DNA from: an uncultured delta proteobacterium | Lineage (GTDB): Bacteria; Desulfobacterota; Binatia; Binatales; Binataceae | Direction: 5' to 3' | DNA length: 64,000 nt | NCBI GenBank assembly: GCA_963808235.1 | Contig: CAWEEQ010000004.1 | Coordinates: 781,084-845,083 of the forward strand | Shown here: positions 23,201 to 58,082 of the stretch, piece by piece | Layout: every line of letters starts with the position of its first letter | Position numbering within the stretch: the first letter of the stretch is position 1 | Position numbers and translations under genes: made by a program | Notes under the pieces: generated by a model | Told to the model about the DNA's origin: nothing | What the model saw: the letters and a program-made list of their open reading frames with translations, nothing else | Database searches by the model: none

Positions 23201-23277
23201 GCCCCCTTAGCTCAGATGGATAGAGCACAGGATTCCTAATCCTGGGGCCGTGGGTTCGAATCCCGCAGGGGGCACCA
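23201..23277 (+). tRNA. tRNA-Arg (anticodon CCT)
   Basis: Hand fold: acceptor GCCCCCT/AGGGGGC, D stem GCTC/GAGC, anticodon stem CAGGA/TCCTG with loop TTCCTAA, T stem GTGGG/CCCGC with loop TTCGAAT, discriminator A, encoded CCA; 77 nt. Confidence 0.92.
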
Positions 23278-23757: not shown

Positions 23758-23792
23758 AGGTTCGGATTCGCCATTCCGGGCGGAAGCCGCCG

Positions 23793-25325: not shown

Positions 25326-25385
25326 TGTTAGCTCACCCGCCTGTTCGGCGATCTATTTCGTGTTGACCCCCTTGGCTAGTTCAGA

Positions 25386-26594
25386 TCAGTCGGAGCTTTG
25401 AACTGGCGCCGACTTAGTCTGCACATCCCGGTTCTCTATCCTACAATCAACTGGGACTCCCGGAGTGAGAGTGCTGCTATAGGTCGTCACTACCAGCGAC
25501 TTCGCCGACACCCCCGAGGTTACCTCTACATAAGCGCCGTTGTTGATCCCCGTTTTAGCCGGAACTTCGGCAAGACGGCCGTTGTCTACAATCAATAGGC
25601 GCGCTGAGCCTCCCGATCCCTGAATCGCTGAGGCCGGTACACTCAGAGCGTCAGGATGCCGGATCAGTTCGATGCTGACGTGCGCATAGCTTCTCGGATA
25701 GATCAGGCGGTTCGGATTATCTATGTCGACCTCAGTCAGCATTGTGCGAGTTGCGAGATCGAGCGACGACGCATACCTGGCGACGATGCCATTGAAGACT
25801 CGGCCAGGAAATTCGTCGAAGTGCAGCATCGCCGGGGTGCCACGATGGATGAACGGATATGAAGCCTCCGGAACGTAGATATAGACTCGTAATTTATCTA
25901 TGTCGGCGAGCGTCAGGATCGGGCCGCCACCCTCGCGATGCCCTCCGGCGCCCTCAGTAGCTCCTGGGGAAATCAACCCCGAGGTTTCGTCAACTCCAAG
26001 GTCACCGCCGCCGGCGCGGATCAGAGCCCCGGGATCGGCGAATCGCCCAGTGATTACTCCATCGAAGGGCGCGATGATTTTTGTATATGAGAACATAGTC
26101 TGCAGGGTTGCAACCGCGGCTTGAGCCTCACGATACTTGGCATAAGCCATGTCGACGTCTTGCTGCGATATCAGCCGTGAGTCACTCTGCTGGACCTTCT
26201 TCAAACGATCATAAGTTATGCGCTCGATTTCGAGGCTAGCCTGCGAGCGCGTTAGGTTCGATTGCAGTTCCGGTACTTCGATTTCGGCCAGCACCTGACC
26301 GGTCTTGACCGAGTCGCCCTTGTCCACGCTGATACTCTTCAAGTATCCGGTGACTTTCGAATGAAGAGCAGCCTCGTAGAAGCCCACAACGTCGCCTGGG
26401 AGTTCGATACTTTTGTCTATTTCTCCACGGCGTGGATATACAACGTTCACTATCGGTCGTTGAGTCGTAGTCATGGGCGTGACAGGCGTGTCGCAGCCGC
26501 TCGTGCATAAAACGACGATCGATAAGATAGTCGTTACTGCCCAGCCTAAACCCCTCACTGTCGTTTGCTCCCCGGGAACTAGTAGCATGGACAT
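25386..26594 (-). CDS. efflux RND periplasmic adaptor (membrane fusion protein)
   Basis: 402 aa; lipobox LCTSGC; biotinyl-lipoyl-like GDSVKTGQVLAEIEVPEL plus hairpin and beta-barrel segments. The ATG shares one base with the RND stop (ctgATG). Confidence 0.85.
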   Translation of the reverse strand: MSMLLVPGEQTTVRGLGWAVTTILSIVVLCTSGCDTPVTPMTTTQRPIVNVVYPRRGEIDKSIELPGDVVGFYEAALHSKVTGYLKSISVDKGDSVKTGQVLAEIEVPELQSNLTRSQASLEIERITYDRLKKVQQSDSRLISQQDVDMAYAKYREAQAAVATLQTMFSYTKIIAPFDGVITGRFADPGALIRAGGGDLGVDETSGLISPGATEGAGGHREGGGPILTLADIDKLRVYIYVPEASYPFIHRGTPAMLHFDEFPGRVFNGIVARYASSLDLATRTMLTEVDIDNPNRLIYPRSYAHVSIELIRHPDALSVPASAIQGSGGSARLLIVDNGRLAEVPAKTGINNGAYVEVTSGVSAKSLVVTTYSSTLTPGVPVDCRIENRDVQTKSAPVQSSD

Positions 26595-29500
26595 CAGCCT
26601 CGGTCCTCATTCGGCGTCTGCACGGCCGCTGCCCGTTCGATCCGCCGATAGAAGAACTCGTAAATGCAAGGGACGAGAAACAATGTAAGTACGGTGGACA
26701 CCGCAAGACCGCCCACCGCGGCCCTTGCCAGGGGAGCCGAAGCTTCTGATCCCTCGCCGAGCTTCAACGCGATCGGCATAAGACCAGCCACCGTGGCCAA
26801 GGCGGTCATCAGGATTGGCCGCATTCTTATGCGGGCGGAATCGATCGCCGCGCGTCTTAGCTCATGTCCCTGGCGGCGTCGTTCATTGGCGAAGTCGACG
26901 AGCAAAATCGAATTCGACACAACGATACCGACCATCACGATGATCCCCATGAACGATTCTATGTTGAGTGTGGTTCCTGTCGCCCACAACGTCCAGATGA
27001 CGCCTATCAATCCCATCGGGACCGCGAACATGATGATGAAGGGGTCCAGGAAAGACCGAAATTGAGCCACCATCACCAGGTAAAGTAGAACGACCGCCAG
27101 CGAGAGACCGAAGCCGAAGCTCGAGAAAGATTTCTGCATCGAGCTTACGGCGCCGCGGTACCTGACGGAGACGCCCGGAGGGAGAGTCATCTTGCTCACC
27201 TCGCGCTGGATTTTCTCCTGCGTGCCACCCAGATCCTGGGTGCTGGGTGCGACGAGCAGATCGACAATCCGCTGAATGCTGTAATGATCTGCTTCGGAAG
27301 GGTGGGATTCGGGAGCAATAGACGCCACATCACGCAGCAAAAGGCTCTGCGCGTGTCCCGTTTCCTTGTTCACAGTCTCGATAGGGATGTTTTGCAGCAC
27401 CTCCAGAGAATCAAAGCCATTCTGGGCGCCTAGGTACTGCACCGTCAGAAAGTAGTCGTCCTTGTTTGCGCGATCGATCCAGATCGATGGTTTAATGTAC
27501 AGGTTTGAATCGAGCGCGGTGATGACGTTCTGAATGACTTCCTGCTGCGCTACGCCCAAACGCGCCGCTCTCACGCGGTCGACCTTGATGTTTAGTGTCG
27601 GATAGTCCAATTCCTGGGCGATGAAGCTCTGCGAAACTTGAGAGAGGGCGTTGATTCTCGCTTGAAGTTCCTTCGCCGCATTATGCAACTCGGTAAAGCT
27701 ACTACCGGCAAATTCGACATCGATGGGAGCTATCTTCCCGAGATTGAGAACGGAGTCGATTATGCTGCCTGAGGAAAACAGGGTACGGGCGTTCGGCAGT
27801 TGTATAGGGAGCAGTTGCTTCAACCGGGCTACATAGTATTGGGTCGGATGTCGGTGACCGGACTTGAGCGCCACCTGCATGAAACCTGAATCCTGGGCCG
27901 AGTTAGGCGAGTAAATCGCCGATATGCTGGGGGCAATTCCGATATTCGAAACGACCATGTCGAGCTCGTCCGGCGGAATCACCTTTCTGACAAGGTCTTC
28001 GATTCGACGCGCCATATCGGTGGTCAGTTCAATACGAGTACCGGCTGGCGCGCGAAAATTGATCGTGAACATTCCCGCATCGGTCTCCGGAAACAACTCG
28101 GTACCGAGACGTGGATACATCGCGAGACTTACGACGAACAGAATCGTAACCCCCACGATGACCACAGACTTGTGGTCCAGCGCATTTTCAAGAAGACGCT
28201 CGTAAGCGGAGGCAAAGCGCTCATACGCGCGATTGAAGATCGCGAACACCCCGGAAGATTCGCCGTGCTCCGCCGCGAGCGCCTGTTCGCGGGTGAGAAA
28301 ACGAGCACAGTAGATCGGTATTACGCTCATCGCGACCAGATACGACGCGGCCATCGATAGCACCACCGCCAGCGCCAGCGCACTAAACAGGTACTTCGAG
28401 ACTCCAAACAGAAACATGACCGGGAAGAAGACGATGCAGGTGGTAACGGTCGACGCCAGAACCGGTAGCGCGACCTCCTCGGCCCCATCACGTGCTGCAG
28501 CGTGCGGTTCCTTGCCTTCGGCAAGATGACGGTTGATGTTCTCGAGGACAACCACCGAGTCATCGACTAGTCGGCCGATCGCAAGCGCGAAGCCTCCAAG
28601 GGTCATGATGTTCAGCGTCGAGCCATTGAAGTATAGACCGAATGCCCCTGCCAGAATGGAAAGTGGAATCGAAAGAAAAATCGCAAAGGTCGATCGGAAG
28701 CTGCCGAGAAATATAAGAATCATGAGCGAGGCCAGAACTGCACCGGATATGGCCTCATGTTCGAGACTATCTACCGCCTGTCTGACGTAGATGGACTGGT
28801 CTAGTATGGTCTTCAGTTTCATCCCGGCTGGCAGGCCGAAAACGTTTGGAATCAGTTGCTTGACGCCATCCACCACCGAAATGGTATTGGCGCCGGCTTG
28901 GCGAAGAACCGGGATGTATACCGACGGTTGCCCGTTAATCAGCACCGTATTGTATTGAATCTGAGCAGAGTCTGTGACCTTACCGACATCATCCATCAGC
29001 ACGGGGGCCTGACCACGTCCTATCTTCACTGGCACCTGGTTAATATCGGGCACCTTTTCGATCAAGCTGTTCGAATAGATGTAGTAATCCTTGGATCCGA
29101 TCTTGACGTCGCCTGCGGGCAAGATGACGTTGGACGTGTCGAGCGCACTGACAACGTCCATTAGCGACAGGCCACGCGCTTGCAGCGCTTGCGGATTTGC
29201 GTATGCCATCACCTGTCGAAACTTGCCGCCGAAGGGAATCGGTACCGACGCGCCCGGCACCGTCGCCAGCTGATTGCGAACGTTGTAGCGGGCTTGATCC
29301 TCGAGTTGCGTCTCGTTGTAACCTTTACCTCCGAGCGTGACCAACACCACCGGCAGAGATGATGCGTCGTACTGCAGCACCAGCGGCGGGAGCGTCCCCG
29401 GCGGCAGAACCCCGAGATCGGCCTCCGCCAAGGTTCCCATCTGCGCGGCGGCAGCCGCAACGTCGGTGCCCGGCTGAAAGAACACTTTGATGATGCTCAC

Positions 29501-29755
29501 ACCCGACAGCGAACGCGACTCGATATGCTCAATGTTGCTGCCCAACGTAAAGAATCGCTCGTAGCGAAAGGTGATGTTGTCTTCCATGTCGAGCGGCGGC
29601 ATGCCCTGGTAAAAGGTAGCCACCACAACCGCTGGGATTTTAATGTCCGGAAAGATGTCCACCGGCATCTGCGTAAACGCCGTTGCACCCAGAATCACGA
29701 TGATCAGCGCTCCGACAATGATTAGGTACGGATTGCGCAGCGAGAAACTTGGCAC
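26594..29755 (-). CDS. efflux RND transporter permease (AcrB/CzcA superfamily)
   Basis: 1053 aa; 12-TM, two-large-loop organisation; GGFALAIGRLVDDSVVVLENI motif. Confidence 0.92.
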   Translation of the reverse strand: MPSFSLRNPYLIIVGALIIVILGATAFTQMPVDIFPDIKIPAVVVATFYQGMPPLDMEDNITFRYERFFTLGSNIEHIESRSLSGVSIIKVFFQPGTDVAAAAAQMGTLAEADLGVLPPGTLPPLVLQYDASSLPVVLVTLGGKGYNETQLEDQARYNVRNQLATVPGASVPIPFGGKFRQVMAYANPQALQARGLSLMDVVSALDTSNVILPAGDVKIGSKDYYIYSNSLIEKVPDINQVPVKIGRGQAPVLMDDVGKVTDSAQIQYNTVLINGQPSVYIPVLRQAGANTISVVDGVKQLIPNVFGLPAGMKLKTILDQSIYVRQAVDSLEHEAISGAVLASLMILIFLGSFRSTFAIFLSIPLSILAGAFGLYFNGSTLNIMTLGGFALAIGRLVDDSVVVLENINRHLAEGKEPHAAARDGAEEVALPVLASTVTTCIVFFPVMFLFGVSKYLFSALALAVVLSMAASYLVAMSVIPIYCARFLTREQALAAEHGESSGVFAIFNRAYERFASAYERLLENALDHKSVVIVGVTILFVVSLAMYPRLGTELFPETDAGMFTINFRAPAGTRIELTTDMARRIEDLVRKVIPPDELDMVVSNIGIAPSISAIYSPNSAQDSGFMQVALKSGHRHPTQYYVARLKQLLPIQLPNARTLFSSGSIIDSVLNLGKIAPIDVEFAGSSFTELHNAAKELQARINALSQVSQSFIAQELDYPTLNIKVDRVRAARLGVAQQEVIQNVITALDSNLYIKPSIWIDRANKDDYFLTVQYLGAQNGFDSLEVLQNIPIETVNKETGHAQSLLLRDVASIAPESHPSEADHYSIQRIVDLLVAPSTQDLGGTQEKIQREVSKMTLPPGVSVRYRGAVSSMQKSFSSFGFGLSLAVVLLYLVMVAQFRSFLDPFIIMFAVPMGLIGVIWTLWATGTTLNIESFMGIIVMVGIVVSNSILLVDFANERRRQGHELRRAAIDSARIRMRPILMTALATVAGLMPIALKLGEGSEASAPLARAAVGGLAVSTVLTLFLVPCIYEFFYRRIERAAAVQTPNEDRG

Positions 29756-29859
29756 GATGCAAACTCCCTGTCACCGGCGAAGTGATTACGCCGGTGGACT
29801 TTGACTTGACTATAACCGCCCGCGAATATCGGGCGCGTGTTAGCGAATCTGAAGTTTGC

Positions 29860-30225
29860 TTACAGCGGGTCTTGGCTTTCCGCGCGCGAGGGGAGCAATT
29901 TGAATCGTCTTATGAATGGCTGTACGGAAGGAGTCGCGAATCTGAACCTCGGTAAGGGCCTCACGGCCAGGTTGTCCGATACCGACGTCAAGTACTTCGG
30001 GAATGAAACATCAAGCGCTTGAGAGCCGGAATCGAGGTCGGGCTGACTTGACGAGGCCTTGGTGAATCTCTGTGCACCGCTAAGCCTATTCTGCTCGCAC
30101 GATCCGCAAGACACGCGAAAGTGTGGAACCTGCAATCGAGGGGTGAAGGCCACGATGCTCGTCACGATGAGAACCGCGGCAACCAGTTGCAGATGTAGAC
30201 GAGAAAACATTACTCCGACGCTCAT
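29860..30225 (-). CDS. hypothetical small exported protein upstream of the RND gene (weak call)
   Basis: The ORF is open to 30303. The internal Met at 30225 gives MSVGVMFSRLHLQLVAAVLIVTSIVAF (signal/anchor-like). No recognisable domain and a weak RBS. Confidence 0.25.
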   Translation of the reverse strand: MSVGVMFSRLHLQLVAAVLIVTSIVAFTPRLQVPHFRVSCGSCEQNRLSGAQRFTKASSSQPDLDSGSQALDVSFPKYLTSVSDNLAVRPLPRFRFATPSVQPFIRRFKLLPSRAESQDPL

Positions 30226-30419
30226 CTTATCGTTCCGCATTTTCGAATGCAAAGCGGAAGAATCTTTCCGCGTCTCGCGAAGATTTCCGCATTCGGCAGA
30301 CAACGTTTATTGCAGTCTGCCCTCTCGTTCAATCACGCCAGGAGCAGGTGCCAACTTTGCGGCGTATGATGTATACGTCGTGAAGCTTTTCAGAGACGCG
30401 AGTCCGAGCGCTGGGCCGG

Positions 30420-30875
30420 ATGCCCTTATTCAAGAAAATTCTTTGTCCTCTCGATTTCGATCAGAATTCGCTTCTGGCGCTCCAGGTTGCGACCGAACTG
30501 GCGCGGGAACGCAAAGCGACCCTCGATTTGCTGCACGTCGTCTCGATACCTTCCGGACCCGAGGTTGCGTTACCCTTCGCCAAAATGGAGAAGGCCGCAC
30601 GAACCAGGCTTGAGCGGCTGGCGGGCCAAAAAATAGGCAGCAAAGTCTCCCATCGCGTCGACGTATCGATGGGCGATCCGGCCGCCGAGATCATTCATAC
30701 CGCGAAAAAGTTGGATACCGATCTTATTGTGATGGCAACCCACGGACGGAAAGGACTCCGTCACCTTGTGCTGGGAAGCGTAGCCGAACGCGTGGTGCGG
30801 GAAGCCCCGTGCCCGGTGCTCGCGATCAAGTCGAAAGCTCCGGCCGCGAAGATCAAAAGACCTCGATCGAAATAA
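30420..30875 (+). CDS. universal stress protein (UspA family)
   Basis: 151 aa; ILCPLDF...DLLHVV...DLIVMATHGRKGLRHLVLGSVAERVVREAPCPVLAI; paralog of 23305-23757. Confidence 0.88.
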   Translation: MPLFKKILCPLDFDQNSLLALQVATELARERKATLDLLHVVSIPSGPEVALPFAKMEKAARTRLERLAGQKIGSKVSHRVDVSMGDPAAEIIHTAKKLDTDLIVMATHGRKGLRHLVLGSVAERVVREAPCPVLAIKSKAPAAKIKRPRSK

Positions 30876-31153
30876 TTCGCTGTATGACGTCACAGCTCAA
30901 ACGGTCGAAATCCTCGCGGTCGTCGCGAAATCAGAACTGTCGCGCTTTCCGCGGTTGGCAGAGAGGGCCAGGGGATCGAAATCTGGTTAAATTCAAGCCA
31001 TGAGCGGTGATGAAGGGAATATGGGGATCCGCCAAAAGGGTTTCACTGATACAAGAGCAATAATGAGGCTGCTTAAGGCTTGACTAATTTCTTGTCTTGC
31101 TCCATAGTGATGCTGCCACCGAAAGGGCGGGCAAAAACGGGGAAGGTAGGATA

Positions 31154-31399
31154 ATGCAACGATCACGAGAAAATGATGAGACTCAGCCGGAATTCTATAC
31201 TGTCGGCCAGCTCGCGGACTTGCTCCAACTGACGCCGATGACGATATACCGGATGGTCAGACGCGGCGAGCTCGCCTGTCATGCGATCGGGCGAATCAAA
31301 CGCTTTCGCCGCGGCGACGTAGAGACGTTCCTCGAGAATTCCAGGCAGCCGGCCTCGGAAGCCACCGCGGCTCCGGCTCCTCGCCGTCTCGATGGCTGA
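31154..31399 (+). CDS. excisionase-family (HTH_17, MerR-superfamily) DNA-binding protein, paralog 1
   Basis: 81 aa from the ATG at 31154 (AGGTAGG upstream); FYTVGQLADLLQLTPMTIYRMVRRGELACHAIGRIKRFRRGDVETFL. Confidence 0.8.
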   Translation: MQRSRENDETQPEFYTVGQLADLLQLTPMTIYRMVRRGELACHAIGRIKRFRRGDVETFLENSRQPASEATAAPAPRRLDG

Positions 31400-31663: not shown

Positions 31664-31882
31664 ATGCAACGCTCACGTCCGAAAGAAGACGCCCAGCCCG
31701 AGTTCTACACCGTTGGACAACTTGCCGATTTGCTGCAACTCACACCCATGACCATTTACCGCATGGTCAGGCGCGGCGAGTTGGCTTGTCACGCGATCGG
31801 TCGCATCAAGCGTTTCAGACGCGGCGATGTCGAGGCTTTTTTACAAAGCTCGAGGAAACCAGCGGCAAGCGCACCAAGCTAA
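31664..31882 (+). CDS. excisionase-family (HTH_17) DNA-binding protein, paralog 2
   Basis: 72 aa. The core is identical in protein sequence to paralog 1 except for one residue. Confidence 0.8.
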   Translation: MQRSRPKEDAQPEFYTVGQLADLLQLTPMTIYRMVRRGELACHAIGRIKRFRRGDVEAFLQSSRKPAASAPS

Positions 31883-32115
31883 GACTTGCTCGTCTTACGC
31901 TCGGCGCCTGAATCGCCGTTGGTTTGGTGTTCCGGTTCCCTGGCTACGCTCCCGCCCGCCGCGACCCATTGATCGACGACTGGCACTTCAAAGCGCAGAT
32001 CCCGTCCAACTCTAATAGCCCGCAACTGGCCTCTTCGCACCAGCCTGCGAACGGTAGCCGGATTGACATGCAGGTAGTCGGAAACCTCACGCAATGTGAG
32101 CATCCTTGCTGGCAT
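31879..32115 (-). CDS. excisionase-family (HTH_17) DNA-binding protein, third copy, convergent
   Basis: MLTLREVSDYLHVNPATVRRLVRRGQLRAIRVGRDLRFEVPVVDQWV. The start is uncertain (32115, 32103 or 32160). Its stop codon overlaps the stop of 31664-31882. Confidence 0.7.
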   Translation of the reverse strand: MPARMLTLREVSDYLHVNPATVRRLVRRGQLRAIRVGRDLRFEVPVVDQWVAAGGSVAREPEHQTNGDSGAERKTSKS

Positions 32116-32355
32116 ATGCTCGCCCCTGGCTGACTCCATTCGACCCGGATTCATCCGCAAGCTCGCAAAAGTCTCATCAGGTTTGTCCTCGCCGTTTCGG
32201 TGACCGGAGGTGGCCGGAGGTCTCTAAATCTATTTGACTGTCTAATGCGCATTATCATTCAAATTACTTGACGACGACTCATCTATTGCTTGATGACCAT
32301 CATCTGCTTTCTCAAACGTAGCAAGATTTCAAAGACTAATCAAGCCATGAAAATA

Positions 32356-32384: not shown

Positions 32385-32526
32385 TCTAAAGCGTGGCATC
32401 TTTATTTACTTTATTTTATGTCTCATTGCTTTGTTTATTCTTTTATGGTACAGTCTTACATAGCGTGCATCCCTTACGATTCATGCGTCGAATCGCGTAC
32501 TGACCTGAGCAGTGAGAAAAAAAACC

Positions 32527-33252
32527 ATGAAACGAAAACTATTGGTCATAGCTCTTCTGTGTTGTGCGCAGCTTCTGTTCGGATGCTCCGCGAAGGACCC
32601 GGAGGCTACCGATATCAAGGGTGTGTCGATGGCGCCGGTGTCGCCTGCCTGCCAATTCACTTCGGTCGACGACCAGTTTCGATCATACCGGATTCAGCCG
32701 GGCGACCAGCTCGACATCAGTTTTTATATGAGCCCCGAGTTTGACCAGGACCTGACCGTACGACCCGACGGCGACATCTCGATGCCGGTGGTCGGCAATA
32801 TTCACGTGCAGGGACTAACCCCGGTCGGGCTCGAGAAGAATCTCAATCAGCTCTATTCGCAGGAGTTGAAAGATCCGAAGACCACGGTCCGCATCGACAA
32901 GAGTCCAAGCCAGGTCGTGTACGTCGAGGGCCAGGTTGGCAAACCCGGCGCGGTGCCGCTGCAGCCCGGGATGACCGCGATCCAGGCGATCGCCGCGTCG
33001 GGCGGAATGAACGATAACGCCGGACCGAGCCGGGTGATTCTCATAAGACGCGACGCGTGCGGGAACGCGCACGGGCAGCCTCTCAAGCTCGACAAAGTGC
33101 TGAACCAGAAAAATAACGAAGAAGATGTGGCGCTGCTGCCTTCGGACATCGTGGTCGTACCGCGCAGCGGGATTGCCCAATTCGATCTCGACGTGAAGCA
33201 GTACGTGCGCGACGCGATGCCGGTCGAAGTCTACGCCGCGCCGCCATTTTGA
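32527..33252 (+). CDS. polysaccharide export outer-membrane lipoprotein (Wza/OPX family)
   Basis: MKRKLLVIALLCCAQLLFGCS lipobox. Poly_export motif: YRIQPGDQLDISFY...VRPDGDISMPVVGNIHVQGLT. SLBB-like: VYVEGQVGKPGAVPL. Confidence 0.85.
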   Translation: MKRKLLVIALLCCAQLLFGCSAKDPEATDIKGVSMAPVSPACQFTSVDDQFRSYRIQPGDQLDISFYMSPEFDQDLTVRPDGDISMPVVGNIHVQGLTPVGLEKNLNQLYSQELKDPKTTVRIDKSPSQVVYVEGQVGKPGAVPLQPGMTAIQAIAASGGMNDNAGPSRVILIRRDACGNAHGQPLKLDKVLNQKNNEEDVALLPSDIVVVPRSGIAQFDLDVKQYVRDAMPVEVYAAPPF

Positions 33253-33262
33253 GCCGAGTGGG

Positions 33263-34786
33263 ATGAATCAGATGAACAACGAAGCTGTAATGCAGTGGAT
33301 AGAGAAGATATTCCGGCGCCGGGCGTTGGCGCTCCGGATAGGCCTGCTGGTCTTCGGCGTAATCGCGCTGGGCTCGATCATGTGGCCCCCGAGCTACGCG
33401 TCGTCGTCGAAAATCCTGGTTCAATCCAACCGCGCGCAACTGCTGGTCTCGCCCGGGCTGAAGGAAGACGCCGCCAATCAATCGACCCAAACGGTTCCGG
33501 TGGCGGAGCAGGACCTCAACTCGGAGGTCGAGCTGCTGACCAGTCCGTTCCTTATTAAGCAGGCGCTCGCGGGGATGAAGCTCAATCAACGCAAGGGCGG
33601 CGTGATCGCGGGAATGCGAAACATTGTCGACGCGGTCGTCAGCGTCCCGACAGACGTGTACACGGTGCTGCACGGAGGCCCCAGCGCGACTGCGAACCAG
33701 GACGAGATTCAGAAAATCGTGAATCATCTCAGCGCGGACGTGATCAAGCGCTCGAATGTTATCGAGGTTTCGATTGTCTCGCACGATCCCGCGTGGGCGA
33801 AAGCGTTTCTCTCGCAATTGATGACTTCATACCTGAACCTGCACGGGCAGTTGTCGCAGAATCCGCAGGCGCAGGCATTTTTCCAGCAGCAGCGCGCGCT
33901 GCTCGATCAGCGCCTCCAGGACTCAGAGAAGGAGTTGCGCGCGGCGCAACTGCAGACCGGAATCGCTCAATTCAGCGAGCAGCAGCAGGCGCTCATCAAC
34001 CAGGTGTCCGCCGCCGAGGCGAACTATCGCACCACCAGCGCCTCTCTGGATTCCAAGCTGCAGCAGATCAGGAGCCAGGAAGCCGAGTTGAAGCAGACTC
34101 CGCAGCGTCAGACCAAGGAATCGAAGTCGGTCCAGAACATGGCGCTCAGCCAGTTGAAGCCGCAGATGCTTCAACTCGAAACCGAGCGTGCCGAGTTGTT
34201 GAGCCGCTATCAGCCCACCAGCGAGAGAATCCGTGCGATCGACGCCAAGCTGAAAGCCGGCCAAATCATCCTGAGCCGCGAAGATAAGACCAACGTCCAG
34301 GAAACCACCACCGATGTGAATCCGACCTGGCAGGCGCTCGATGCCGATTTGGCCAAAGCGCGGGCCGAAGCCGCGTCGGATAAGGCGGCGCAGACCACTG
34401 AAGCGGCGCAAGTCGCAACGTTACAGAATCAGCTCAAACAGATGACCACGGATGGAGTCGAGATCGAACGCCTGCAGCGCAAAGTCGATAGCGACAAGGA
34501 AGCGTACATGTCGTACGTGCGCAAGGGCGAGGAGGCCCGCGCGGCCGAGGCTCTTAACCAAAGCCGGATCCTGAACGTGAGCGTGGTGCAGGATCCGACC
34601 ACTCCGATCGATCCGGTGTCGCCGCGAATCCGGTTGAATCTGATCGCCGGGCTCCTGTTTGCCCTGATGCTGGCGGTCGCCGCGGCGCACTGGACCGAGG
34701 AATACGATCCCAAGATTTGTTCGACCGCGTCGATATTCAAGGACACCGGGCTCAGCACGGTCGCGATCCTCGACGACAGGTTGTAG
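33263..34786 (+). CDS. polysaccharide chain-length determinant (PCP/GumC-like, no kinase domain)
   Basis: 507 aa; N-terminal TM followed by YASSSKILVQ (Wzz-type), a long Gln/Ala-rich coiled coil, and a C-terminal TM (LNLIAGLLFALMLAVAAA). Confidence 0.8.
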   Translation: MNQMNNEAVMQWIEKIFRRRALALRIGLLVFGVIALGSIMWPPSYASSSKILVQSNRAQLLVSPGLKEDAANQSTQTVPVAEQDLNSEVELLTSPFLIKQALAGMKLNQRKGGVIAGMRNIVDAVVSVPTDVYTVLHGGPSATANQDEIQKIVNHLSADVIKRSNVIEVSIVSHDPAWAKAFLSQLMTSYLNLHGQLSQNPQAQAFFQQQRALLDQRLQDSEKELRAAQLQTGIAQFSEQQQALINQVSAAEANYRTTSASLDSKLQQIRSQEAELKQTPQRQTKESKSVQNMALSQLKPQMLQLETERAELLSRYQPTSERIRAIDAKLKAGQIILSREDKTNVQETTTDVNPTWQALDADLAKARAEAASDKAAQTTEAAQVATLQNQLKQMTTDGVEIERLQRKVDSDKEAYMSYVRKGEEARAAEALNQSRILNVSVVQDPTTPIDPVSPRIRLNLIAGLLFALMLAVAAAHWTEEYDPKICSTASIFKDTGLSTVAILDDRL

Positions 34787-34791
34787 CCGAT

Positions 34792-36375
34792 ATGTATTAC
34801 GAACACTTCAGACTTAGCGGCGCTCCCTTCGAGTTCAATCCCTCGGCGTCGGTGCTCTTCATGAGCGCGGGGCATCGCGAAGGATTGGCGGCGCTCGAGT
34901 GGGGACTGTCCGAGCCGAGCGGATTCACGATGCTGGTCGGCGAGATCGGGACCGGCAAGACCACGCTCATCTACTCGCTGCTCGCGACGCGGCATCAGGG
35001 CGTCCGGACCGCGTGGGTGGCGAATCCGCGCTTAAGCTTCGAAGACATGATGCGCCAGATTTTGGGCCAGCTGGGCGCAGTTGCGCCGGAGACGTCGGGC
35101 AAGCTCGCGCTGCTGCAGGCGTTCGACGCGCAGCTCGCGAGCCATGGGCTCGAAGAGTGCGTGGCGGTGATTGTCGACGAGGCGCAGGACCTGAGCGACG
35201 ACGCGCTGGAAGATCTGCGCCTGTTGACCAACTTTCAATCGCTCGAGCGCAGACGCCTGCAAATAGTGCTGGTCGGTCAGCTCGATCTCGCCAGAAGGCT
35301 GGGGCGGCCGCAACTGCGCCAACTGAATCAGCGAATCGGTGCGCGCGCGCTGTTGCCGACTCTGCAGGACCGGGAGATTTACGACTACGTCGAATACCGG
35401 CTGCGCTCGCGCGGCGGAGATATCGAGAACCTGTTCACGCGGAGCGCGATGCGGGAGCTCGCGCGCGCGAGCGGCGGAATCCCGCGGCGGATCAACATGC
35501 TTTGCCACAACGCGATGCTGCAGGCATACGCGGACGGCGAGCAATTCGTCGCCGAAAAGCATGTGCGTGCCGCCGCCAGCGACTACGATAATTTGCTGGT
35601 CGGCAAAGATTCGGCGTCCGCGAAGATGGCCGCATCGGCGAGCGCGGCGATGCAATCCGCGAGCACAAAGATACGGTCGGCGAGCGCGTCGATGCATTCA
35701 TCGGCGGTCTCGATGGCGCCGGCGATGCGTTCGGGCGCGACCAAGGCGGTTCGCGCGTTGAGCGCGGCGGCAACATTCGGGGCGCTGAGCTTGCTCGGCG
35801 TAGCGGTAGTCGGATTTTGCGAGATGCAGCCGGTGCACAATGATCTTTCCGCGCTGGTCAGGAAATTCGAATCGAAAGCGGCGAGTTTCAGAAGGCCAAT
35901 CGTGGTGCAGCGGGCGCCGGCGCAGTTCGTGACCGGTTCGTCCCCGGCGACCGTTCCGGCGCCGAACACAATTGGTTCGGCTCCAGCGGCCGTTCATGAC
36001 AGCACCGCCCCGGGCGCCCACGAATTGAGTACGCGCGGACACCTCAGGGGTCTTTCGGCGACTGGCCGGCGGGTTCCAGTCAAGCCGCAACCTGAAGCGA
36101 GCGCCGTTCCCAATATTTTGCCGGTGACGTTGTCGCCGGTCGGAAATATTTCCGCATCTCCGGATTCTTCGACGAAACCAGATGACGGCGCCTTGCGCAC
36201 CGACTCGACCATTTTGGTCAGGGCGGGCGACTCGCTCAGCAAGATAGCGATGAGAATCTATGGTTCGTTCGGAGCCGATGAAGTTAAGCGATTGACCGCG
36301 GCGAATCCGCAAATCAAGGACGCGAACGTGATCTATCCCGGTCAGTCTATTCACGTGCAGCAAGCTACCAAATGA
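34792..36375 (+). CDS. ExeA/GspA-like AAA ATPase with TM segment and C-terminal LysM domain
   Basis: MYYEHFRLSGAPFEFNP...GFTMLVGEIGTGKTTL (Walker A), VIVDEAQ (Walker B), TM AATFGALSLLGVAVVGF, LysM ILVRAGDSLSKIAMRIYG...NPQIKDANVIYPGQSIHV. Confidence 0.8.
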   Translation: MYYEHFRLSGAPFEFNPSASVLFMSAGHREGLAALEWGLSEPSGFTMLVGEIGTGKTTLIYSLLATRHQGVRTAWVANPRLSFEDMMRQILGQLGAVAPETSGKLALLQAFDAQLASHGLEECVAVIVDEAQDLSDDALEDLRLLTNFQSLERRRLQIVLVGQLDLARRLGRPQLRQLNQRIGARALLPTLQDREIYDYVEYRLRSRGGDIENLFTRSAMRELARASGGIPRRINMLCHNAMLQAYADGEQFVAEKHVRAAASDYDNLLVGKDSASAKMAASASAAMQSASTKIRSASASMHSSAVSMAPAMRSGATKAVRALSAAATFGALSLLGVAVVGFCEMQPVHNDLSALVRKFESKAASFRRPIVVQRAPAQFVTGSSPATVPAPNTIGSAPAAVHDSTAPGAHELSTRGHLRGLSATGRRVPVKPQPEASAVPNILPVTLSPVGNISASPDSSTKPDDGALRTDSTILVRAGDSLSKIAMRIYGSFGADEVKRLTAANPQIKDANVIYPGQSIHVQQATK

Positions 36376-36393: not shown

Positions 36394-37254
36394 ATGAGTA
36401 GATACTTTCAGGCAATGGAACGCCGCAAGAACGGAATGGTTCCGTTAACTGATTCCAGGATAGGTGATGCGAGAATCGCTGATTCCAACTTCGCTGATTC
36501 GAAGGTCGTTGAGTCGAAGATCATCGATTCCAAGATCATCGAGACCAAGACCAAGCCGTTCTCACACTCACAGGCTGTAGCGCGAACTCAGCCGATGGCG
36601 CTTCCGTCTGTTTCGGAGCCGCAAGGGTTGCTCGATACGCTCGCATGCTGCCATTCGATGCGCAGCTTGAGCGAGCAGCTGGCGGCGGCGAGCGCGCACA
36701 ATGGCCCTGCGCGAATACTCATGACCGGATGCCGGCCGGGCGACGGCGTATCCACCGTGGCTGCGGCGATGGCGCTCGACATAAGTCAGCGCCTGGCGGC
36801 GCGGACAGTGCTGGTAGAAGGACAGCCGCGAGTCACGATGATGCATCCGTTCTTCGCGCGCTCTTGCGCGCCAACTCCCGCGACGATCACGAGCGCGTCG
36901 ATCGCCGTGCAAGGAACCGGATATCCGCGGCTCGAGACGGCGCGGCCGGAGCAGTTGGCGCTAGCGGACCAACCGGCACGGCTGGTGGAAGATCTGGACG
37001 AATTACTTATGCGCTATCGCCTGGCGGTTATAGATCTCGGCGTAGTGCGTTTGGACCCACGAATGTTAGCGCTGGCGCGGCCCACCGATCCGATCCTGAT
37101 TGTGGCCCGACATCTGCATACAGATCGAGCGGAAATGATCGCGACGGCAAACATCCTGCGCTCTACCGGACATCCCGTAGCTGGGGTGATTCTGAATGGA
37201 TACAAGTCGCCGTTGCCATCGCTGGTTCGCCGCCTTGTTGGAATGGAGGAATAA
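36394..37254 (+). CDS. BY-kinase/MinD-like P-loop protein with degenerate Walker motifs
   Basis: ARILMTGCRPGDGVSTVAAAMALDISQ aligns to the S..PGEGKST Walker A of CpsD/EpsG-type kinases, but the Lys is replaced by Val. The A' box DxD is replaced (VLVEGQPR). There is no C-terminal Tyr cluster. Confidence 0.6.
   Translation: MSRYFQAMERRKNGMVPLTDSRIGDARIADSNFADSKVVESKIIDSKIIETKTKPFSHSQAVARTQPMALPSVSEPQGLLDTLACCHSMRSLSEQLAAASAHNGPARILMTGCRPGDGVSTVAAAMALDISQRLAARTVLVEGQPRVTMMHPFFARSCAPTPATITSASIAVQGTGYPRLETARPEQLALADQPARLVEDLDELLMRYRLAVIDLGVVRLDPRMLALARPTDPILIVARHLHTDRAEMIATANILRSTGHPVAGVILNGYKSPLPSLVRRLVGMEE
36451..36555 (+). repeat. 7 x 15-bp in-frame tandem repeat (pentapeptide DSKII-type)
   Basis: gattccaggataggt / gatgcgagaatcgct / gattccaacttcgct / gattcgaaggtcgtt / gagtcgaagatcatc / gattccaagatcatc / gagaccaagaccaag encodes DSRIG DARIA DSNFA DSKVV ESKII DSKII ETKTK. 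Confidence 0.9.
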
Positions 37255-37257
37255 GCA

Positions 37258-38379
37258 ATGGAAGATCTTATCTCGCACAATGGTACTCTAGCCGGTTCAC
37301 ACAACGGCATTCACGCGCCATCAAGTGTGCCTACCTACTCAACTCGGCGCCAAATGCGCGGGATTGCGATTGTTGGGCTCGGCTACTGGGGGCCCAACTG
37401 GGTGAGAAATTTTTCCCAGATACAGGGAATCGACCATGTCGTGTGCTGTGACTTCAGCCGCCCGCGGCTCGATCACATCAAGGGACGTTACCCATCGGTA
37501 GTCATTACCGACCAGCTAGACCGGGTGCTCACCGATCCCGCGATCGACGCGGTCGTAGTTGCTACGCCGGTTAACACTCACTTTGAGATAGCAAGTCGAT
37601 GCCTGAAGGCAGGTAAGTCGACGCTGGTCGAGAAGCCACTGGCTACCTCATGCGACCAGGCAGAGCTTCTAATAAAGATGGCGCGCGAGCGCGATCTGAC
37701 GCTTATGGCGGGCCACACCTTCGAGTACAGCGCGCCGGTGGTGAAGATTCGCGAGCTGATCGACAGCGGCGAGCTCGGCGATATTTTCTACATCAGCTCG
37801 GTGCGCGCGAATCTCGGGCTCTTTCGCCGCGACGTCAACGTGGCCTGGGATCTGGCTACGCACGACATCTCGATCATCCTGATGCTGCTGGGCGAGATGC
37901 CGCTTGAGGTGACTTGCCAGGGCGAGAGCCACTATCACGATCACGTCGAAGACGTTGCGCTGCTCACGCTTCGCTTTGCCAACAACGTGATCGCTTTCGT
38001 GCACGTTAGCTGGCTCGATCCGAACAAGATTCGGCGCACAACTATAGTAGGTTCGCGCAAGATGCTGGTGTACGACGACACGGCGTTGCAGGAAAAAGTC
38101 CGCGTCTACGATAAGGGCGTCACCAAGCATCCTTACTACGACACTTATGGAGACTTTCAGCTTTCATATCGTTACGGCGACGTGAATATCCCGCGGATCG
38201 ACGACCCGGAGCCGCTCAAGGTGGAATGCGATCACTTTATTGAATGCATCAAGAGCGGGATTGCACCGAACAGCGACGGACTGAGCGGACTTAGAGTAGT
38301 GAAGGTGCTGGAAGCAGCCGACCGTTCGCTCAAGAGTCACGGAAGGCCGATAGCGCTTACTCCAACCAGGGTGAACTAG
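37258..38379 (+). CDS. Gfo/Idh/MocA-family sugar-nucleotide oxidoreductase (WbpB-like)
   Basis: IAIVGLGYWGPNWVRN Rossmann start, EKPLA motif, GGAGG RBS. Confidence 0.8.
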   Translation: MEDLISHNGTLAGSHNGIHAPSSVPTYSTRRQMRGIAIVGLGYWGPNWVRNFSQIQGIDHVVCCDFSRPRLDHIKGRYPSVVITDQLDRVLTDPAIDAVVVATPVNTHFEIASRCLKAGKSTLVEKPLATSCDQAELLIKMARERDLTLMAGHTFEYSAPVVKIRELIDSGELGDIFYISSVRANLGLFRRDVNVAWDLATHDISIILMLLGEMPLEVTCQGESHYHDHVEDVALLTLRFANNVIAFVHVSWLDPNKIRRTTIVGSRKMLVYDDTALQEKVRVYDKGVTKHPYYDTYGDFQLSYRYGDVNIPRIDDPEPLKVECDHFIECIKSGIAPNSDGLSGLRVVKVLEAADRSLKSHGRPIALTPTRVN

Positions 38380-38423
38380 CACACACCACTTAGATGTAGC
38401 ACTGAAAGAATGTGAGAACTGAG

Positions 38424-38924
38424 ATGTCACCGCACGAACTACCACCCAACGTATGCGCCTCGGCCGACGTGATCCTGGGCGAGGAGGTCCAATTAGCACC
38501 TTTCGTAAATCTATACGGATGCAGCGTCGGAGACGCGTCGCGAATCGGCGCCTTCGTGGAAGTTCAGCGCGACGCGCACATCGGCAAGCGCTGCAAGATA
38601 TCGAGTCACACTTTCATTTGTTCCGGCGTCACTATTGAAGATGAGGTTTTCATCGGTCACGGGGTGCTGTTCATCAACGATCGGCATCCACGCGCGACCA
38701 ACCCCGACGGCACCTCCAAGACCCCGGACGATTGGGTGATGGAGCGCACTTACGTGCGGCGCGGCGCCTCGATTGGGAGCGGTGCGATCATCATGTGCGG
38801 CGTCGAGATTGGCGCGAGATCGATGGTCGCAGCCGGTGCGCTAGTGACCAGTGACGTTCCCGCGCGAGCAACTGTCCTAGGTATACCGGCACGTCTATAT
38901 ACCGGCCAGCGCCGGTCCGCATAG
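38424..38924 (+). CDS. left-handed beta-helix N-acetyltransferase (WbpD-like)
   Basis: Hexapeptide repeats IGAFVEV...IGKRCKI...IGHGVLF...IGSGAIIMCGVEIG...; a GTG at 38412 is an alternative start. Confidence 0.78.
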   Translation: MSPHELPPNVCASADVILGEEVQLAPFVNLYGCSVGDASRIGAFVEVQRDAHIGKRCKISSHTFICSGVTIEDEVFIGHGVLFINDRHPRATNPDGTSKTPDDWVMERTYVRRGASIGSGAIIMCGVEIGARSMVAAGALVTSDVPARATVLGIPARLYTGQRRSA

Positions 38925-38941
38925 ATCAGGAGTCGAACGAG

Positions 38942-40078
38942 ATGCCAATCAAATTTTTGGACCTCGCGGCACAGAACCGCGAAATCATGCCACAAGTCGA
39001 GCGCGGCTTCGCGGAAATCCACGAGAAGACTTCGTACGTTGGAGGCCCACAGGTGGCGGCGTTCGAAGAGGAATTTGCGAACTTCCTGGGCGCCCGCCAG
39101 GTGATCAGCGTGGCGAGCGGGACCGACGCGCTAAGACTCGCGCTGCTCGCGATCGGAATCGGGCCGGGCGACGAAGTGATCACGACTCCGATGACGTTCA
39201 TCGCGACTGCCGAAGCGATCGTGCAGACCGGCGCGCGGCCCTCGTTTGTGGATATCGATCCGAACACCGGAAATATGAGTGTTCCGGAAATCTCGCGCTA
39301 CCTCGAGCGGGGACGCTTCACAGCGCCCAACGGCCCGCGCGCGATCGTCCCGGTTCATCTCTACGGAATGCCGGCGCCGATGATCGAAATGCGCGATCTC
39401 GCGCAGGCGTGCAACCTTAAACTGATCGAGGACGCATGCCAGGCGCATGGCGCGCGCATCACTCACGACGGCCAATCGCAATATGCCGGCACGATCGGCG
39501 CGGCCGGTTGCTTCAGTTTTTATCCCGGTAAGAATCTGGGCGCGTGGGGCGAAGGCGGGGCCGTGGCGACCAATGACGAGGAGCTGGCGGCGCAGATCCG
39601 TACGTTACGCGACCACGGACGCCTTTCGCACTACGCGCACAGTGCATATGGATACAATGCGCGGCTCGACACGATGCAGGCGGCGGTACTCCGTCCGAAG
39701 CTCGAGCGCCTGGCGGAGTGGAATGCACGACGCCGGCACTTCGCGGCGCTTTATCGTGAAACTCTGCCTCACGAGGTGGAGCTGCTGTCCGAGCCCGAGG
39801 GTATCGAGTCGTGCTACCACCTGTTCGTCATCCGCAGCGAGCGGCGAGACGCGATCAGAACCGCGCTGCTGCAAAACCAGATCGAGTGCGGGATCCATTA
39901 CCCGGTTCCGCTTCATCTACAGCCGGCATGCCGCGACCTCGGATATGCGCAAGGAGATTTTCCGCACGCCGAGACGATGGCTGACACCGTGCTGTCATTG
40001 CCGATGCATCCCTTTCTGACCGAGCGCGAAGTTAAGACGGTCAGCCAGGCAGTCAAGCGCGCATTAACCACAGGTTGA
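38942..40078 (+). CDS. DegT/DnrJ/EryC1/StrS-family sugar aminotransferase (WbpE-like)
   Basis: 378 aa; SGTDALRLAL, FIATAEAI, SFYPGKNLGAWGEGGAV (PLP-Lys region). Confidence 0.88.
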   Translation: MPIKFLDLAAQNREIMPQVERGFAEIHEKTSYVGGPQVAAFEEEFANFLGARQVISVASGTDALRLALLAIGIGPGDEVITTPMTFIATAEAIVQTGARPSFVDIDPNTGNMSVPEISRYLERGRFTAPNGPRAIVPVHLYGMPAPMIEMRDLAQACNLKLIEDACQAHGARITHDGQSQYAGTIGAAGCFSFYPGKNLGAWGEGGAVATNDEELAAQIRTLRDHGRLSHYAHSAYGYNARLDTMQAAVLRPKLERLAEWNARRRHFAALYRETLPHEVELLSEPEGIESCYHLFVIRSERRDAIRTALLQNQIECGIHYPVPLHLQPACRDLGYAQGDFPHAETMADTVLSLPMHPFLTEREVKTVSQAVKRALTTG

Positions 40079-40085
40079 TAATGTT

Positions 40086-41600
40086 GTGTTAGGCGGGGAA
40101 TTACAGCGTCAGAAGGCGCTACTTGCGGCCACCGACGCGCTAGCAGTCGTCGGCGCGTGTGCACTGTCGCAAGCCATCAGGAACCACGATTTATACCCCC
40201 TGGACCCAGGCAACTGGGGCGAGGCGCTGGCGGGCATGGCGATGCTGGGTGTGATCTGGATACTGGTCGCGCGCGCGGTCGGGCTGTATCGAAACGGGCG
40301 GCGGCACGAAGTCAAGTCGATCGTGAAGGCGAGTTGCGCGGCGTGGTTCACGATGGTGTCGATCAGCTTTTTCCTGCATCTGGCGCCATCGCGGCTGGTG
40401 GTAGGCATCGGACTGGCGCTGACGATTGGTTTTGTCGTAACGGCGCGGATGCTGGTCCGCCGCTGCATCAAGTTTTTTTATTCGCGCCCCGAGTTCGCGG
40501 TGCCGCTGGTCATCGTTGGGGTCAATTCGTTCGGTGTTTACCTGCGTGATCGAATCAAGGAAGAGCTCACGCAGTACGAATTCCTGGGCTTTGTAGATGA
40601 AAACCCGGTCCCGCTCGCATCCAACGGTGTGAACGGGCACAGCGGCACCAACGGACACGACGACGCGAATCGGCACAACGGGCATTCCAAAACGAACGGA
40701 CATTTTGGATCGACCGGGCTCGCCACTCCGGCGCCGGTAATCGGAAGCCTCGAACGCATCGCGAGTCTCGCAATCGTACATCCCAACCTTGAGGCGGTGA
40801 TAGTTCTTCCCGAGCGCGACCACAGCCAGGTCGAGCGTATCATTAAGCTTTGCGAGCGTTATCGAGTTCGCTGGCGGATGATGCCGCGAGTTGCGGAATC
40901 GATGGCTCTGACGGTGGAGATGGTCGGCGCGATTCCGCTGATTGGGCCTCCGGGATCGAACATCGAAGGGCTCAACTGCGTGGTAAAGCGCGGCTTCGAT
41001 GTCGTGGTGGCGAGCCTCCTGCTGCTGCTTGCGTCGCCGCTCTTGATGTTCGCGGCGATTGCGATCTGGCTCACCGACGGACATCCGTTGCTGTTTCGCC
41101 AGACCAGGGTCGGTATCCACGGCACGCCGTTCGAACTGCTGAAATTTCGCACGATGCGCACCGAGTGCTCCGACACGGTGCATCGCGAGTACGTCAAAGA
41201 ATGGATTCAGCGCAATGCGGCCGAGGGGTCGGAGCCCAACGGCGCCAAGGTTTATAAGATCGGCAGCGATCCGCGGATTACGCCGATCGGACGATGGCTG
41301 CGGCGCTTCAGCATCGACGAGCTGCCGCAACTGATCAACGTCCTTTACGGGAACATGAGTCTCATCGGACCGCGGCCCGCGATGCCGTACGAGCTCGAGC
41401 TGTACCAGGAATGGCATCGGCATCGGCTCGACGCGCCGCCGGGAATCACCGGGCTGTGGCAGGTCAGCGGACGCAATCGTCTGTCGTTCGACGAAATGGT
41501 GCAGCTCGACATCGAATATATCGAAGACTGGTCGCTCGCGGGCGACATGGGAATCCTGCTGCGGACGCTGCCCGCGATGCTGCAAGGGAATGGAATGTGA
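40086..41600 (+). CDS. polyprenyl-phosphate glycosyl-phosphotransferase (WbaP/EpsB-type priming sugar transferase)
   Basis: N-terminal TM helices and a central nucleotide-binding-like domain. C-terminal Bac_transf core: KRGFDVVVASLLLLLASPLL...LKFRTM...DPRITPIGRWLRRFSIDELPQLINVL.GNMSLIGPRP. Confidence 0.88.
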   Translation: MLGGELQRQKALLAATDALAVVGACALSQAIRNHDLYPLDPGNWGEALAGMAMLGVIWILVARAVGLYRNGRRHEVKSIVKASCAAWFTMVSISFFLHLAPSRLVVGIGLALTIGFVVTARMLVRRCIKFFYSRPEFAVPLVIVGVNSFGVYLRDRIKEELTQYEFLGFVDENPVPLASNGVNGHSGTNGHDDANRHNGHSKTNGHFGSTGLATPAPVIGSLERIASLAIVHPNLEAVIVLPERDHSQVERIIKLCERYRVRWRMMPRVAESMALTVEMVGAIPLIGPPGSNIEGLNCVVKRGFDVVVASLLLLLASPLLMFAAIAIWLTDGHPLLFRQTRVGIHGTPFELLKFRTMRTECSDTVHREYVKEWIQRNAAEGSEPNGAKVYKIGSDPRITPIGRWLRRFSIDELPQLINVLYGNMSLIGPRPAMPYELELYQEWHRHRLDAPPGITGLWQVSGRNRLSFDEMVQLDIEYIEDWSLAGDMGILLRTLPAMLQGNGM

Positions 41601-57914: not shown

Positions 57915-58082
57915 AAATGTCACTGTGGAGACATTTAGATAGTCAATAACGATAGTCAGAACCAGGCTGGAACGAGGTCCGATAGTAGGCGCTGGCTGTA
58001 GATTGCCGGGGAATTGGGTTTTTTAAGCCAGGCACCGCGTGTTGCCTTTAGTGGTCGTGGTGCCGGGCTTGGGGGAGAAAAA

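Follow-up and report, generated by a model that had tools for sequence, protein, structure and literature searches.

A conserved family of predicted BY pseudokinases encoded with a kinase-less PCP-2 in Candidatus Binatia

In the 64-kb stretch of DNA analysed here (in the following called the window), the open reading frame at 36394–37254 on the + strand encodes a BY-kinase-like protein of 286 amino acids and represents a real, conserved gene. We consider it probable that its product is a stand-alone BY pseudokinase with the predicted fold of Wzc and CapB, which docks on the cytoplasmic tail of a PCP and forms with it a two-part co-polymerase that works independently of phosphorylation. The class of BY pseudokinases has already been published, with EcpK and HfsB as its representatives (PMC12004946); the Binatia-wide family is new, the mechanism is not.

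Motifs and predicted fold

The protein is homologous to BY-kinases. Searching the sequences of the PDB with phmmer, we obtained matches to the CapB chimera 4jlv (E 4.9e-5), VpsO and Wzc. In the alignment to CapB, the degenerate Walker A motif or P-loop, GCRPGDGVST (aa 112–121; 36727–36756, + strand), lies over SEKPGAGKST, with Val in the position of the Lys, exactly as the preliminary description of this DNA had read it. The degenerate Walker A′ motif VLVEGQPR (aa 139–146; 36808–36831, + strand) lies over LVIDGDMRKP, with both Asp residues exchanged, one for Glu and one for Gln (DxD to ExQ), and the Arg kept. Further downstream, the Walker B-like strand LAVIDLG (aa 210–216; 37021–37041, + strand) aligns with IIIVDTPPV; the TPP is replaced by LGV and the Asp, Asp214, is kept, in agreement with the earlier reading of AVIDLG as a retained element. 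As to a true Walker A motif elsewhere in the protein, a possibility raised beforehand, no second P-loop with GK[ST] was found in the 286 amino acids.

A helix equivalent to alpha2 of BY-kinases (aa 87–103; 36652–36702, + strand) could be placed by its alignment to FRGIRSN of CapB. In canonical kinases, this helix carries the O-motif ExxRxxR (as defined in PMC9800525), which is used for octameric ring formation. The corresponding positions are H87, R90 and S93 in the pseudokinase, in columns that vary across the family alignment. Because the motif is not conserved, self-assembly into an octamer is unsupported by the sequence.

The protein ends with ...ILNGYKSPLPSLVRRLVGMEE. It contains four Tyr residues in total (Y4, Y177, Y208 and Y270), and Y270 is the only one in the last 25 residues. 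The preliminary description had noted a single C-terminal Tyr instead of a cluster, which is correct as a count; in the predicted structure, however, Y270 stands at the end of the last beta-strand, outside any flexible tail. The place of the Tyr-rich tail is taken by a short basic helix, SLVRRLV (aa 276–282; 37219–37239, + strand).

This structure was predicted with AlphaFold2 from a 30-sequence family alignment and has a mean pLDDT of 72.5. The core is confident from residue 79 on, with most blocks at 86–95 and the P-loop region (aa 112–121) at 90–94, and comprises seven strands followed by the C-terminal helix, which was modelled with moderate confidence (pLDDT about 66–71). Residues 14–75 are disordered, with a pLDDT below 50 for the N-terminal linker. 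The linker contains lineage-specific pentapeptide repeats (aa 20–54; 36451–36555, + strand), recognized by TRF as period-15 arrays at 36476–36550; they are missing in most orthologues and longer in the homologue P0002. In front of the linker lies a conserved N-terminal helix, MSxYFQAMxR (aa 3–13; 36400–36432, + strand), identified in the model (pLDDT about 60) and in the family alignment.

When the model was compared with the PDB by Foldseek, the best 50 matches listed were all BY-kinase domains, among them Wzc 3la6 (E 1.9e-9), CapAB, BceF, VpsO and Etk, with a probability of 1.0 each. The pseudokinase is therefore predicted to have a BY-kinase P-loop fold. Profile searches were much less sensitive to this relationship. 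Pfam gave a weak match to AAA_26 (21 bits), and in NCBIfam the models TIGR01005, TIGR01007, TIGR03029 and TIGR03018 scored 17–25 bits, far below their cutoffs. For TIGR03018, the XrtA/PEP-CTERM tyrosine autokinase, the score was 16.8 bits at a curated cutoff of 230.65. At E ≤ 0.1, NCBIfam yielded no matches beyond these canonical BY-kinase families.

We also considered whether the P-loop, in the form CRPGDG[AV]S[ST], could be a cryptic CX5R loop of a phosphatase. This was ruled out, as the position of the Arg is occupied by A, V or T. A scan of the 64-kb window with Rfam detected two tRNAs only and nothing near the pseudokinase locus.

Conservation and gene context in Binatia

A search of 5.8 billion proteins identified 184 homologues of the pseudokinase, and scanning species-representative genomes yielded 77 family loci. 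All of these 77 loci come from Candidatus Binataceae or Binatus, or from MAGs labelled 'uncultured delta proteobacterium' or similarly, and in several Binatia MAGs the cassette is present two or three times. For a census of the motifs, we combined the window protein with the proteins of the 77 loci, giving 78 orthologues and paralogues.

The position of the Walker A Lys is occupied by Ala in 49 of these proteins, by Val in 21 and by Thr in eight, and by Lys in none. At the position of the second Walker A′ Asp we found His, Asn or Gln, and in 0/78 an Asp. The first Walker A′ Asp is present in most members and is exchanged, conservatively, for Glu only in the clade of the window. The earlier statement that both Asp residues are lost hence applies to the protein described here, whereas family-wide it applies to the second one only. 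The Walker B Asp is present in 77/78 members. The last 25 amino acids contain no Tyr in 50 proteins, one in 26 and two in two, and no member has a Tyr cluster. The preliminary description had proposed to check orthologues for the same substitutions; none of the 78 proteins has the Lys, the second Walker A′ Asp or a Tyr cluster. The loss of the motifs is a family-wide trait and not a local decay.

The most conserved blocks of the family are aa 111–140, covering the P-loop and the following helix, and aa 211–233 around Walker B. The P-loop skeleton of the family reads GCRPGDG[AVT]S[ST]. C113, G118 and R133 are invariant, and D117, D214, R219, R229 and N268 nearly so, as are Y4 and R10 in the N-terminal helix. 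At the C-terminus, a motif P-x-P-x-h-h-R-R-x-h recurs in the family and also in Lys-less outgroups. Pairwise comparison with five orthologues gave dN/dS values of 0.15–0.21 for the pseudokinase, compared with 0.17–0.20 for the PCP and 0.09–0.13 for neighbouring enzymes. The pseudokinase gene is therefore under purifying selection and no remnant.

The gene belongs to a tight operon on the + strand, which begins with a short, Wza-like OPX lipoprotein gene (32512–33252) with Poly_export and SLBB domains, for which the best NCBIfam model was TIGR03027 (121 bits, below the cutoff of 180). Next follows the gene of a kinase-less PCP-2 of 507 amino acids, the presumed partner (33263–34786, + strand), with GNVR and Wzz domains and 100 bits against TIGR03007, below the cutoff of 279. 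The gene inserted between PCP and pseudokinase (34792–36375, + strand) encodes an ExeA/GspA-like AAA+ ATPase that has a single TM segment and, at its C-terminus, a LysM domain (AAA_22 and LysM; 208 bits against TIGR03015, below the cutoff of 324). Its motifs GEIGTGKTT and DEAQ are intact. Downstream of the pseudokinase (37258–41600, + strand), domain models and synteny identified a Gfo/Idh/MocA dehydrogenase, a hexapeptide acetyltransferase, a DegT aminotransferase and a polyprenyl glycosylphosphotransferase, and beyond the latter we found Wzx, a GT4 glycosyltransferase, Wzy_C, a deacetylase and others.

By tblastn, the eight-gene order OPX-PCP-(ATPase)-pseudokinase-Gfo-AcT-DegT-PGT was recovered in essentially all 77 loci, down to 33–40% identity. 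The ExeA-like ATPase is present in 71 of the 77, and in the other six the PCP directly adjoins the pseudokinase. Every locus that covers the PCP has a kinase-less one adjacent to or near the pseudokinase gene. Searching with the family profile, we found no second BY-kinase-like open reading frame in the 64-kb window or in the 77 loci of 20 kb each, and a pattern search detected neither a canonical Walker A-A′ kinase motif nor an LMW-PTP signature in the window or the 77 loci.

The PCP encoded in the window has two hydrophobic segments, at aa 26–41 and 460–475. It ends 30 residues past the second one and has no kinase domain, as the preliminary description had stated. The resulting cytoplasmic C-terminal tail (aa 478–507, TEEYDPKICSTASIFKDTGLSTVAILDDRL; 34694–34783, + strand) is conserved in about 70 loci, with the consensus W-E-E-x-x-D-P-[KR]-I-[YC]-S-...-G-L-x-T-[VI]-A, and is the predicted docking peptide. 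In a set of 279 sequences, a profile of this tail matched fused Wzc-like proteins (E 3.5e-4 and 1.5e-3) in the linker following TM2, 55–70 residues upstream of the P-loop. In Wzc, the kinase domain has this segment as its first helix and first strand; CapB, in turn, is completed and activated by the equivalent peptide of CapA (PMC12004946). The seven strands in the pseudokinase model versus eight in Wzc would be consistent with a tail that supplies the missing strand in trans. In an AlphaFold2 model of a chimera between the PCP tail of the window and the pseudokinase, for which the family sequences alone served as alignment, the tail was disordered and undocked (pLDDT <50).

Comparison with known systems and proposed mechanism

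The closest described counterpart is EcpK (MXAN_7447) of M. xanthus, a BY pseudokinase needed for EPS synthesis (Blocher et al., J Bacteriol 2025, PMC12004946). EcpK binds the kinase-less PCP-2 EpsV via the 25-residue C-terminal tail of the latter, and was grouped with HfsB/HfsA of Caulobacter and sequence-predicted pairs of other Gram-negatives into a third, phosphorylation-independent PCP-2 subfamily (PMC12004946). GumC had earlier been termed a possible 'pseudo-BY-kinase' in a review (PMC9800525). Like EcpK, the Binatia protein has a stand-alone BY-kinase-like fold and a basic C-terminal helix and lacks the catalytic Walker A Lys, the Walker A′ residues and a Tyr-rich tail. The Binatia PCP-2 and EpsV are alike as well (507 aa, no kinase domain, a cytoplasmic C-terminal tail of 25–30 residues, Wzx/Wzy pathway). 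There are also clear differences. EcpK lacks all three Walker motifs and is built from five strands, without alpha1, alpha2, beta4 and beta5, whereas in the Binatia protein seven predicted strands, the alpha2 helix, the P-loop skeleton and the Walker B Asp are preserved. In Binatia, moreover, the genes of pseudokinase and PCP lie close together, while ecpK and epsV are not adjacent.

In the holdfast system of C. crescentus, HfsB is likewise a stand-alone BY-like protein with a C-terminal helix and without catalytic residues or a Tyr tail, and its partner HfsA is a kinase-less PCP-2, the last ~27 cytoplasmic residues of which were modelled to bind HfsB. HfsB comes from another phylum and another cassette, and we set the Binatia protein beside it by description. 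The Binatia protein lacks the residues for catalysis and the Tyr tail and stands alone, together with a kinase-less PCP-2 in a Wzx/Wzy pathway. These features place it in the BY pseudokinase class of EcpK and HfsB, a class that is defined by function and architecture and not by orthology and with which it was compared by description.

The pair CapA/CapB of S. aureus, a PCP-2b with an active stand-alone BY-kinase, shares the layout of a membrane PCP with a cytoplasmic tail of roughly 30 residues and a separate P-loop protein. Among the proteins of solved structure, CapB matches the Binatia protein best in sequence, and it is a top structural match as well. In contrast to the Binatia protein, which lacks all four, CapB has the GKS/T, the DxD, the Y-cluster and the ring motif ExxRxxR intact. 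The natural exchange of the Lys for Val or Ala resembles the mutations engineered for structure determination, K55M in CapB and K540M in Wzc. A fourth resemblance is to the EPS loci of the XrtA/PEP-CTERM type, which are similar in gene content; OPX, PCP and ExeA-like ATPase each found their best NCBIfam model in the XrtA system. A strict XrtA/PEP-CTERM system was rejected, as the scores of these three and of TIGR03018 (17 against a cutoff of 231) are all below cutoff and there was no exosortase among the open reading frames scanned.

From these comparisons, we suggest the following mechanism. The pseudokinase would keep the P-loop NTPase fold of the kinase domains of Wzc and CapB and would be unable to autophosphorylate, because the Walker A Lys and the second Walker A′ Asp are replaced and a Tyr-rich substrate tail is missing. 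It would dock at the membrane on the 30-residue cytoplasmic tail of the PCP-2, and this tail would supply the first helix and strand that the kinase fold is missing, in the manner of CapA and CapB. To judge from the analogous pairs EcpK/EpsV and HfsB/HfsA, the pseudokinase probably binds the PCP tail physically and acts as a scaffold. PCP and pseudokinase together would then constitute a two-part co-polymerase, whose assembly or oligomeric state supports polymerisation by Wzy and export through the OPX, without a cycle of phosphorylation and dephosphorylation. The preliminary description had likewise suggested a retained kinase fold that lost its catalytic chemistry and serves as a scaffold with a kinase-less PCP. 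Motifs, selection, gene context and the absence of kinase and phosphatase signatures support this view, with a lack of catalytic activity that appears likely from the substitutions.

A purely inert pocket does not explain why the P-loop and Walker B blocks are the most conserved parts of the protein. Wzc with the Lys exchanged for Met still binds MgADP or ATP-Mg and closes into a ring-competent state (PDB titles; PMC9800525), which makes non-catalytic binding of nucleotide or Mg2+ by the Binatia pseudokinase possible. We tentatively propose, as an extension that we regard as unlikely, that the pocket has been repurposed, with C113, D117, G118, S/T120-121, D214, N268 and a set of invariant Arg residues binding a ligand without hydrolysing it, be it a nucleotide, Mg2+ or some other phosphorylated compound. 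Ligand occupancy, or the redox state of Cys113, might then gate the assembly of the PCP in place of Tyr phosphorylation, and the energy-dependent cycling that elsewhere comes from a kinase/phosphatase pair might here be the task of the neighbouring ExeA-like AAA+/LysM ATPase.

The same conservation could also point to an enzyme with a non-canonical chemistry, that is, to an active kinase or ATPase in which Arg114, another invariant Arg or a residue of the PCP tail replaces the Lys, and which phosphorylates another protein or a Tyr outside the tail such as the nearly invariant Y4. In favour of it stand the conserved P-loop glycines, Ser120/Thr121, Asp214 and Asn268, and the fact that no part of the protein is more conserved than the pocket region. 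Yet such an enzyme would have to work with A, V or T at the Lys position in 78/78 members and with the second Walker A′ Asp always lost, and mutations of these residues in YwqD, ExoP and Wzc abolished or much reduced the ATPase and kinase activity (table in PMC9800525). Arg114, though nearly invariant, is A, S or K in some members. There is no Tyr cluster to be phosphorylated, and no phosphotyrosine phosphatase signature in the window or the 77 loci, so that we judge this explanation to be improbable. We give the same low standing to a regulatory role beside a canonical BY-kinase whose gene lies elsewhere in the genome; the two might form mixed rings, or the kinase might phosphorylate the protein in trans, in the way that many eukaryotic pseudokinases associate with active kinases. 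Outside the 64 kb of the window, the multi-megabase genome may encode a canonical kinase or phosphatase, and cross-talk is conceivable in the MAGs with two or three cassette copies. However, all Binatia copies found are Lys-less, none of the 77 loci has a canonical kinase within 10 kb, and the pseudokinase has no Tyr-rich substrate tail that could be modified. For EcpK, genetics argued against a dependence on active kinases (PMC12004946).

Two further explanations appear considerably less probable still. The annotation 'Mrp family chromosome partitioning ATPase' by JGI would suggest a positioning or Fe-S carrier ATPase of the MinD/ParA/Mrp type that is unrelated to the PCP, but the deviant Walker A motif KGGxxGK[ST] of these proteins, with its signature lysine, is absent from the pseudokinase, leaving very little room for this assignment. 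Least credible of all is the idea that the gene has lost its function and is decaying from a former kinase gene. The lost catalytic motifs are what such a gene would show, but the orthologous loci have intact reading frames, with the one exception of L012 and its apparent frameshift, the gene contains invariant blocks, its dN/dS of 0.15–0.21 is close to that of the PCP, and its position in the cassette is kept down to 33–40% identity. A phosphorylation-independent scaffold that docks on the PCP tail fits these observations best.

Helpers of polysaccharide export that are pseudokinases were described in 2025, and the Binatia case therefore represents a new family and no new mechanism. It extends the phosphorylation-independent arrangement of a PCP-2 and a BY pseudokinase to Candidatus Binatia, which in the records retrieved are uncultured and known only as MAGs. 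These bacteria have a conserved and often duplicated exopolysaccharide cassette, of which every copy found has a pseudokinase and none an active kinase. A BY pseudokinase as such would not surprise specialists in 2026; the noteworthy features are the strong conservation of the degenerate pocket and the ExeA-like ATPase that regularly accompanies the protein. With its strongly conserved P-loop and Walker B region, unlike in EcpK, the family offers a natural test case for the control of co-polymerase assembly by nucleotide or Mg2+ binding.

Lys-less relatives outside of the family

At E ≤ 1e-3, the family profile reaches 14,412 proteins of the BY-kinase type. Among 87 outgroup representatives, 35 are without and 46 with the lysine, a proportion that is biased because the query profile favours Lys-less proteins. 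Most of the Lys-less outgroups are stand-alone proteins (26 of 35); nine have the second Asp, and a single one has at least three Tyr in its tail, compared with 23 of the 46 lysine-containing representatives. One of the Lys-less proteins (P0204, locus L079) is encoded directly downstream of a kinase-less PCP; for two others, P0264 and P0197, the contigs were too short to reveal their gene neighbourhood. These counts agree with a correlation between the loss of the lysine and the other losses beyond Binatia, and suggest that the phenomenon is widespread.

The Cys at the start of the P-loop, which is invariant in the family, is also enriched in the Lys-less outgroups, where it occurs in 16 of 35 compared with 5 of the 46 Lys-containing proteins. 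In public annotations, the proteins of the family appear as Mrp/ParA ATPases or are unnamed. Lys-less relatives score above the cutoff of TIGR01007, so that a scan with this model would label them 'tyrosine autokinase'.

Pseudokinase sequence features and the annotation of Lys-less relatives

Near the start of its degenerate P-loop, the pseudokinase, the BY-kinase-like protein with valine in place of the Walker A lysine, carries Cys113 (codon at window positions 36730–36732). This cysteine is invariant in the family, present in all 78 members including the window protein. Beyond the family, the Lys-less outgroups have such a P-loop cysteine more often (16 of 35) than Lys-containing BY-kinases do (5 of 46). 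Four of the Lys-less, BY-like outgroup proteins, P0197, P0204, P0220 and P0264, score above the curated TIGR01007 cutoff of 108 bits. A scan with this model would therefore label them “polysaccharide biosynthesis tyrosine autokinase”, despite their lack of the catalytic lysine.

The disordered N-terminal linker of the window protein contains about seven pentapeptide repeats (amino acids 20–54; 15-nt tandem repeats at window 36451–36555, plus strand) with the consensus [DE][SA]x[IVF][IVAG], for example, DSKVV ESKII DSKII. Because such repeats are absent from most orthologues and longer in the orthologue P0002, we consider this insertion to be variable and lineage-specific.

Export components and cassette copies

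Between the genes for the PCP co-polymerase and the pseudokinase lies a gene for an ExeA/GspA-like AAA+ ATPase (window 34792–36375, plus strand) with intact GEIGTGKTT and DEAQ motifs. The protein has a single transmembrane segment, a linker rich in Pro and Ser and, at its C-terminus, a LysM domain. The same position is occupied by an ATPase gene of this type in 71 of the 77 related Binatia loci, and the gene is missing from the other six (L017, L025, L040, L054, L057 and L065). This ATPase may help the export machinery to cross or anchor to peptidoglycan.

The OPX protein (window 32512–33252, plus strand) is short, with 246 amino acids, a lipobox (LFGC), a Poly_export domain and one SLBB domain, and matches the Myxococcus xanthus EpsY model weakly. 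It resembles the periplasmic D1D2-type OPX proteins, which require a separate outer-membrane beta-barrel; none was identified in the window.

Several individual Binatia MAGs hold two or three diverged copies of the entire eight-gene cassette from OPX to phosphoglycosyltransferase (L002/L067, L003/L068, L005/L072, L017/L054/L058 and others), all of them with a Lys-less pseudokinase.

Regions flanking the polysaccharide operon

Two genes for small DNA-binding proteins of the excisionase-type HTH_17 family (window 31097–31399, plus strand, and 31879–32160, minus strand) lie within the ~1.6 kb immediately upstream of the polysaccharide operon; their products are possible regulators. Minus-strand genes in the region 23305–30875 encode an RND efflux system consisting of an OEP (23793–25325), an HlyD-type adaptor (25386–26594) and an AcrB-type pump (26594–29755). 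Two genes for universal stress proteins (23305–23757, minus strand; 30420–30875, plus strand) and a tRNA (23201–23274) flank this system.

Downstream of the polysaccharide cluster follow three plus-strand genes for large proteins that contain right-handed beta-helix domains, bacterial Ig (Big_7) domains or both (window 53811–55274, 55773–57860 and 58014–60323), which could be secreted enzymes modifying or degrading polysaccharides. The products of the latter two share the N-terminal sequence MATEKALGLR.
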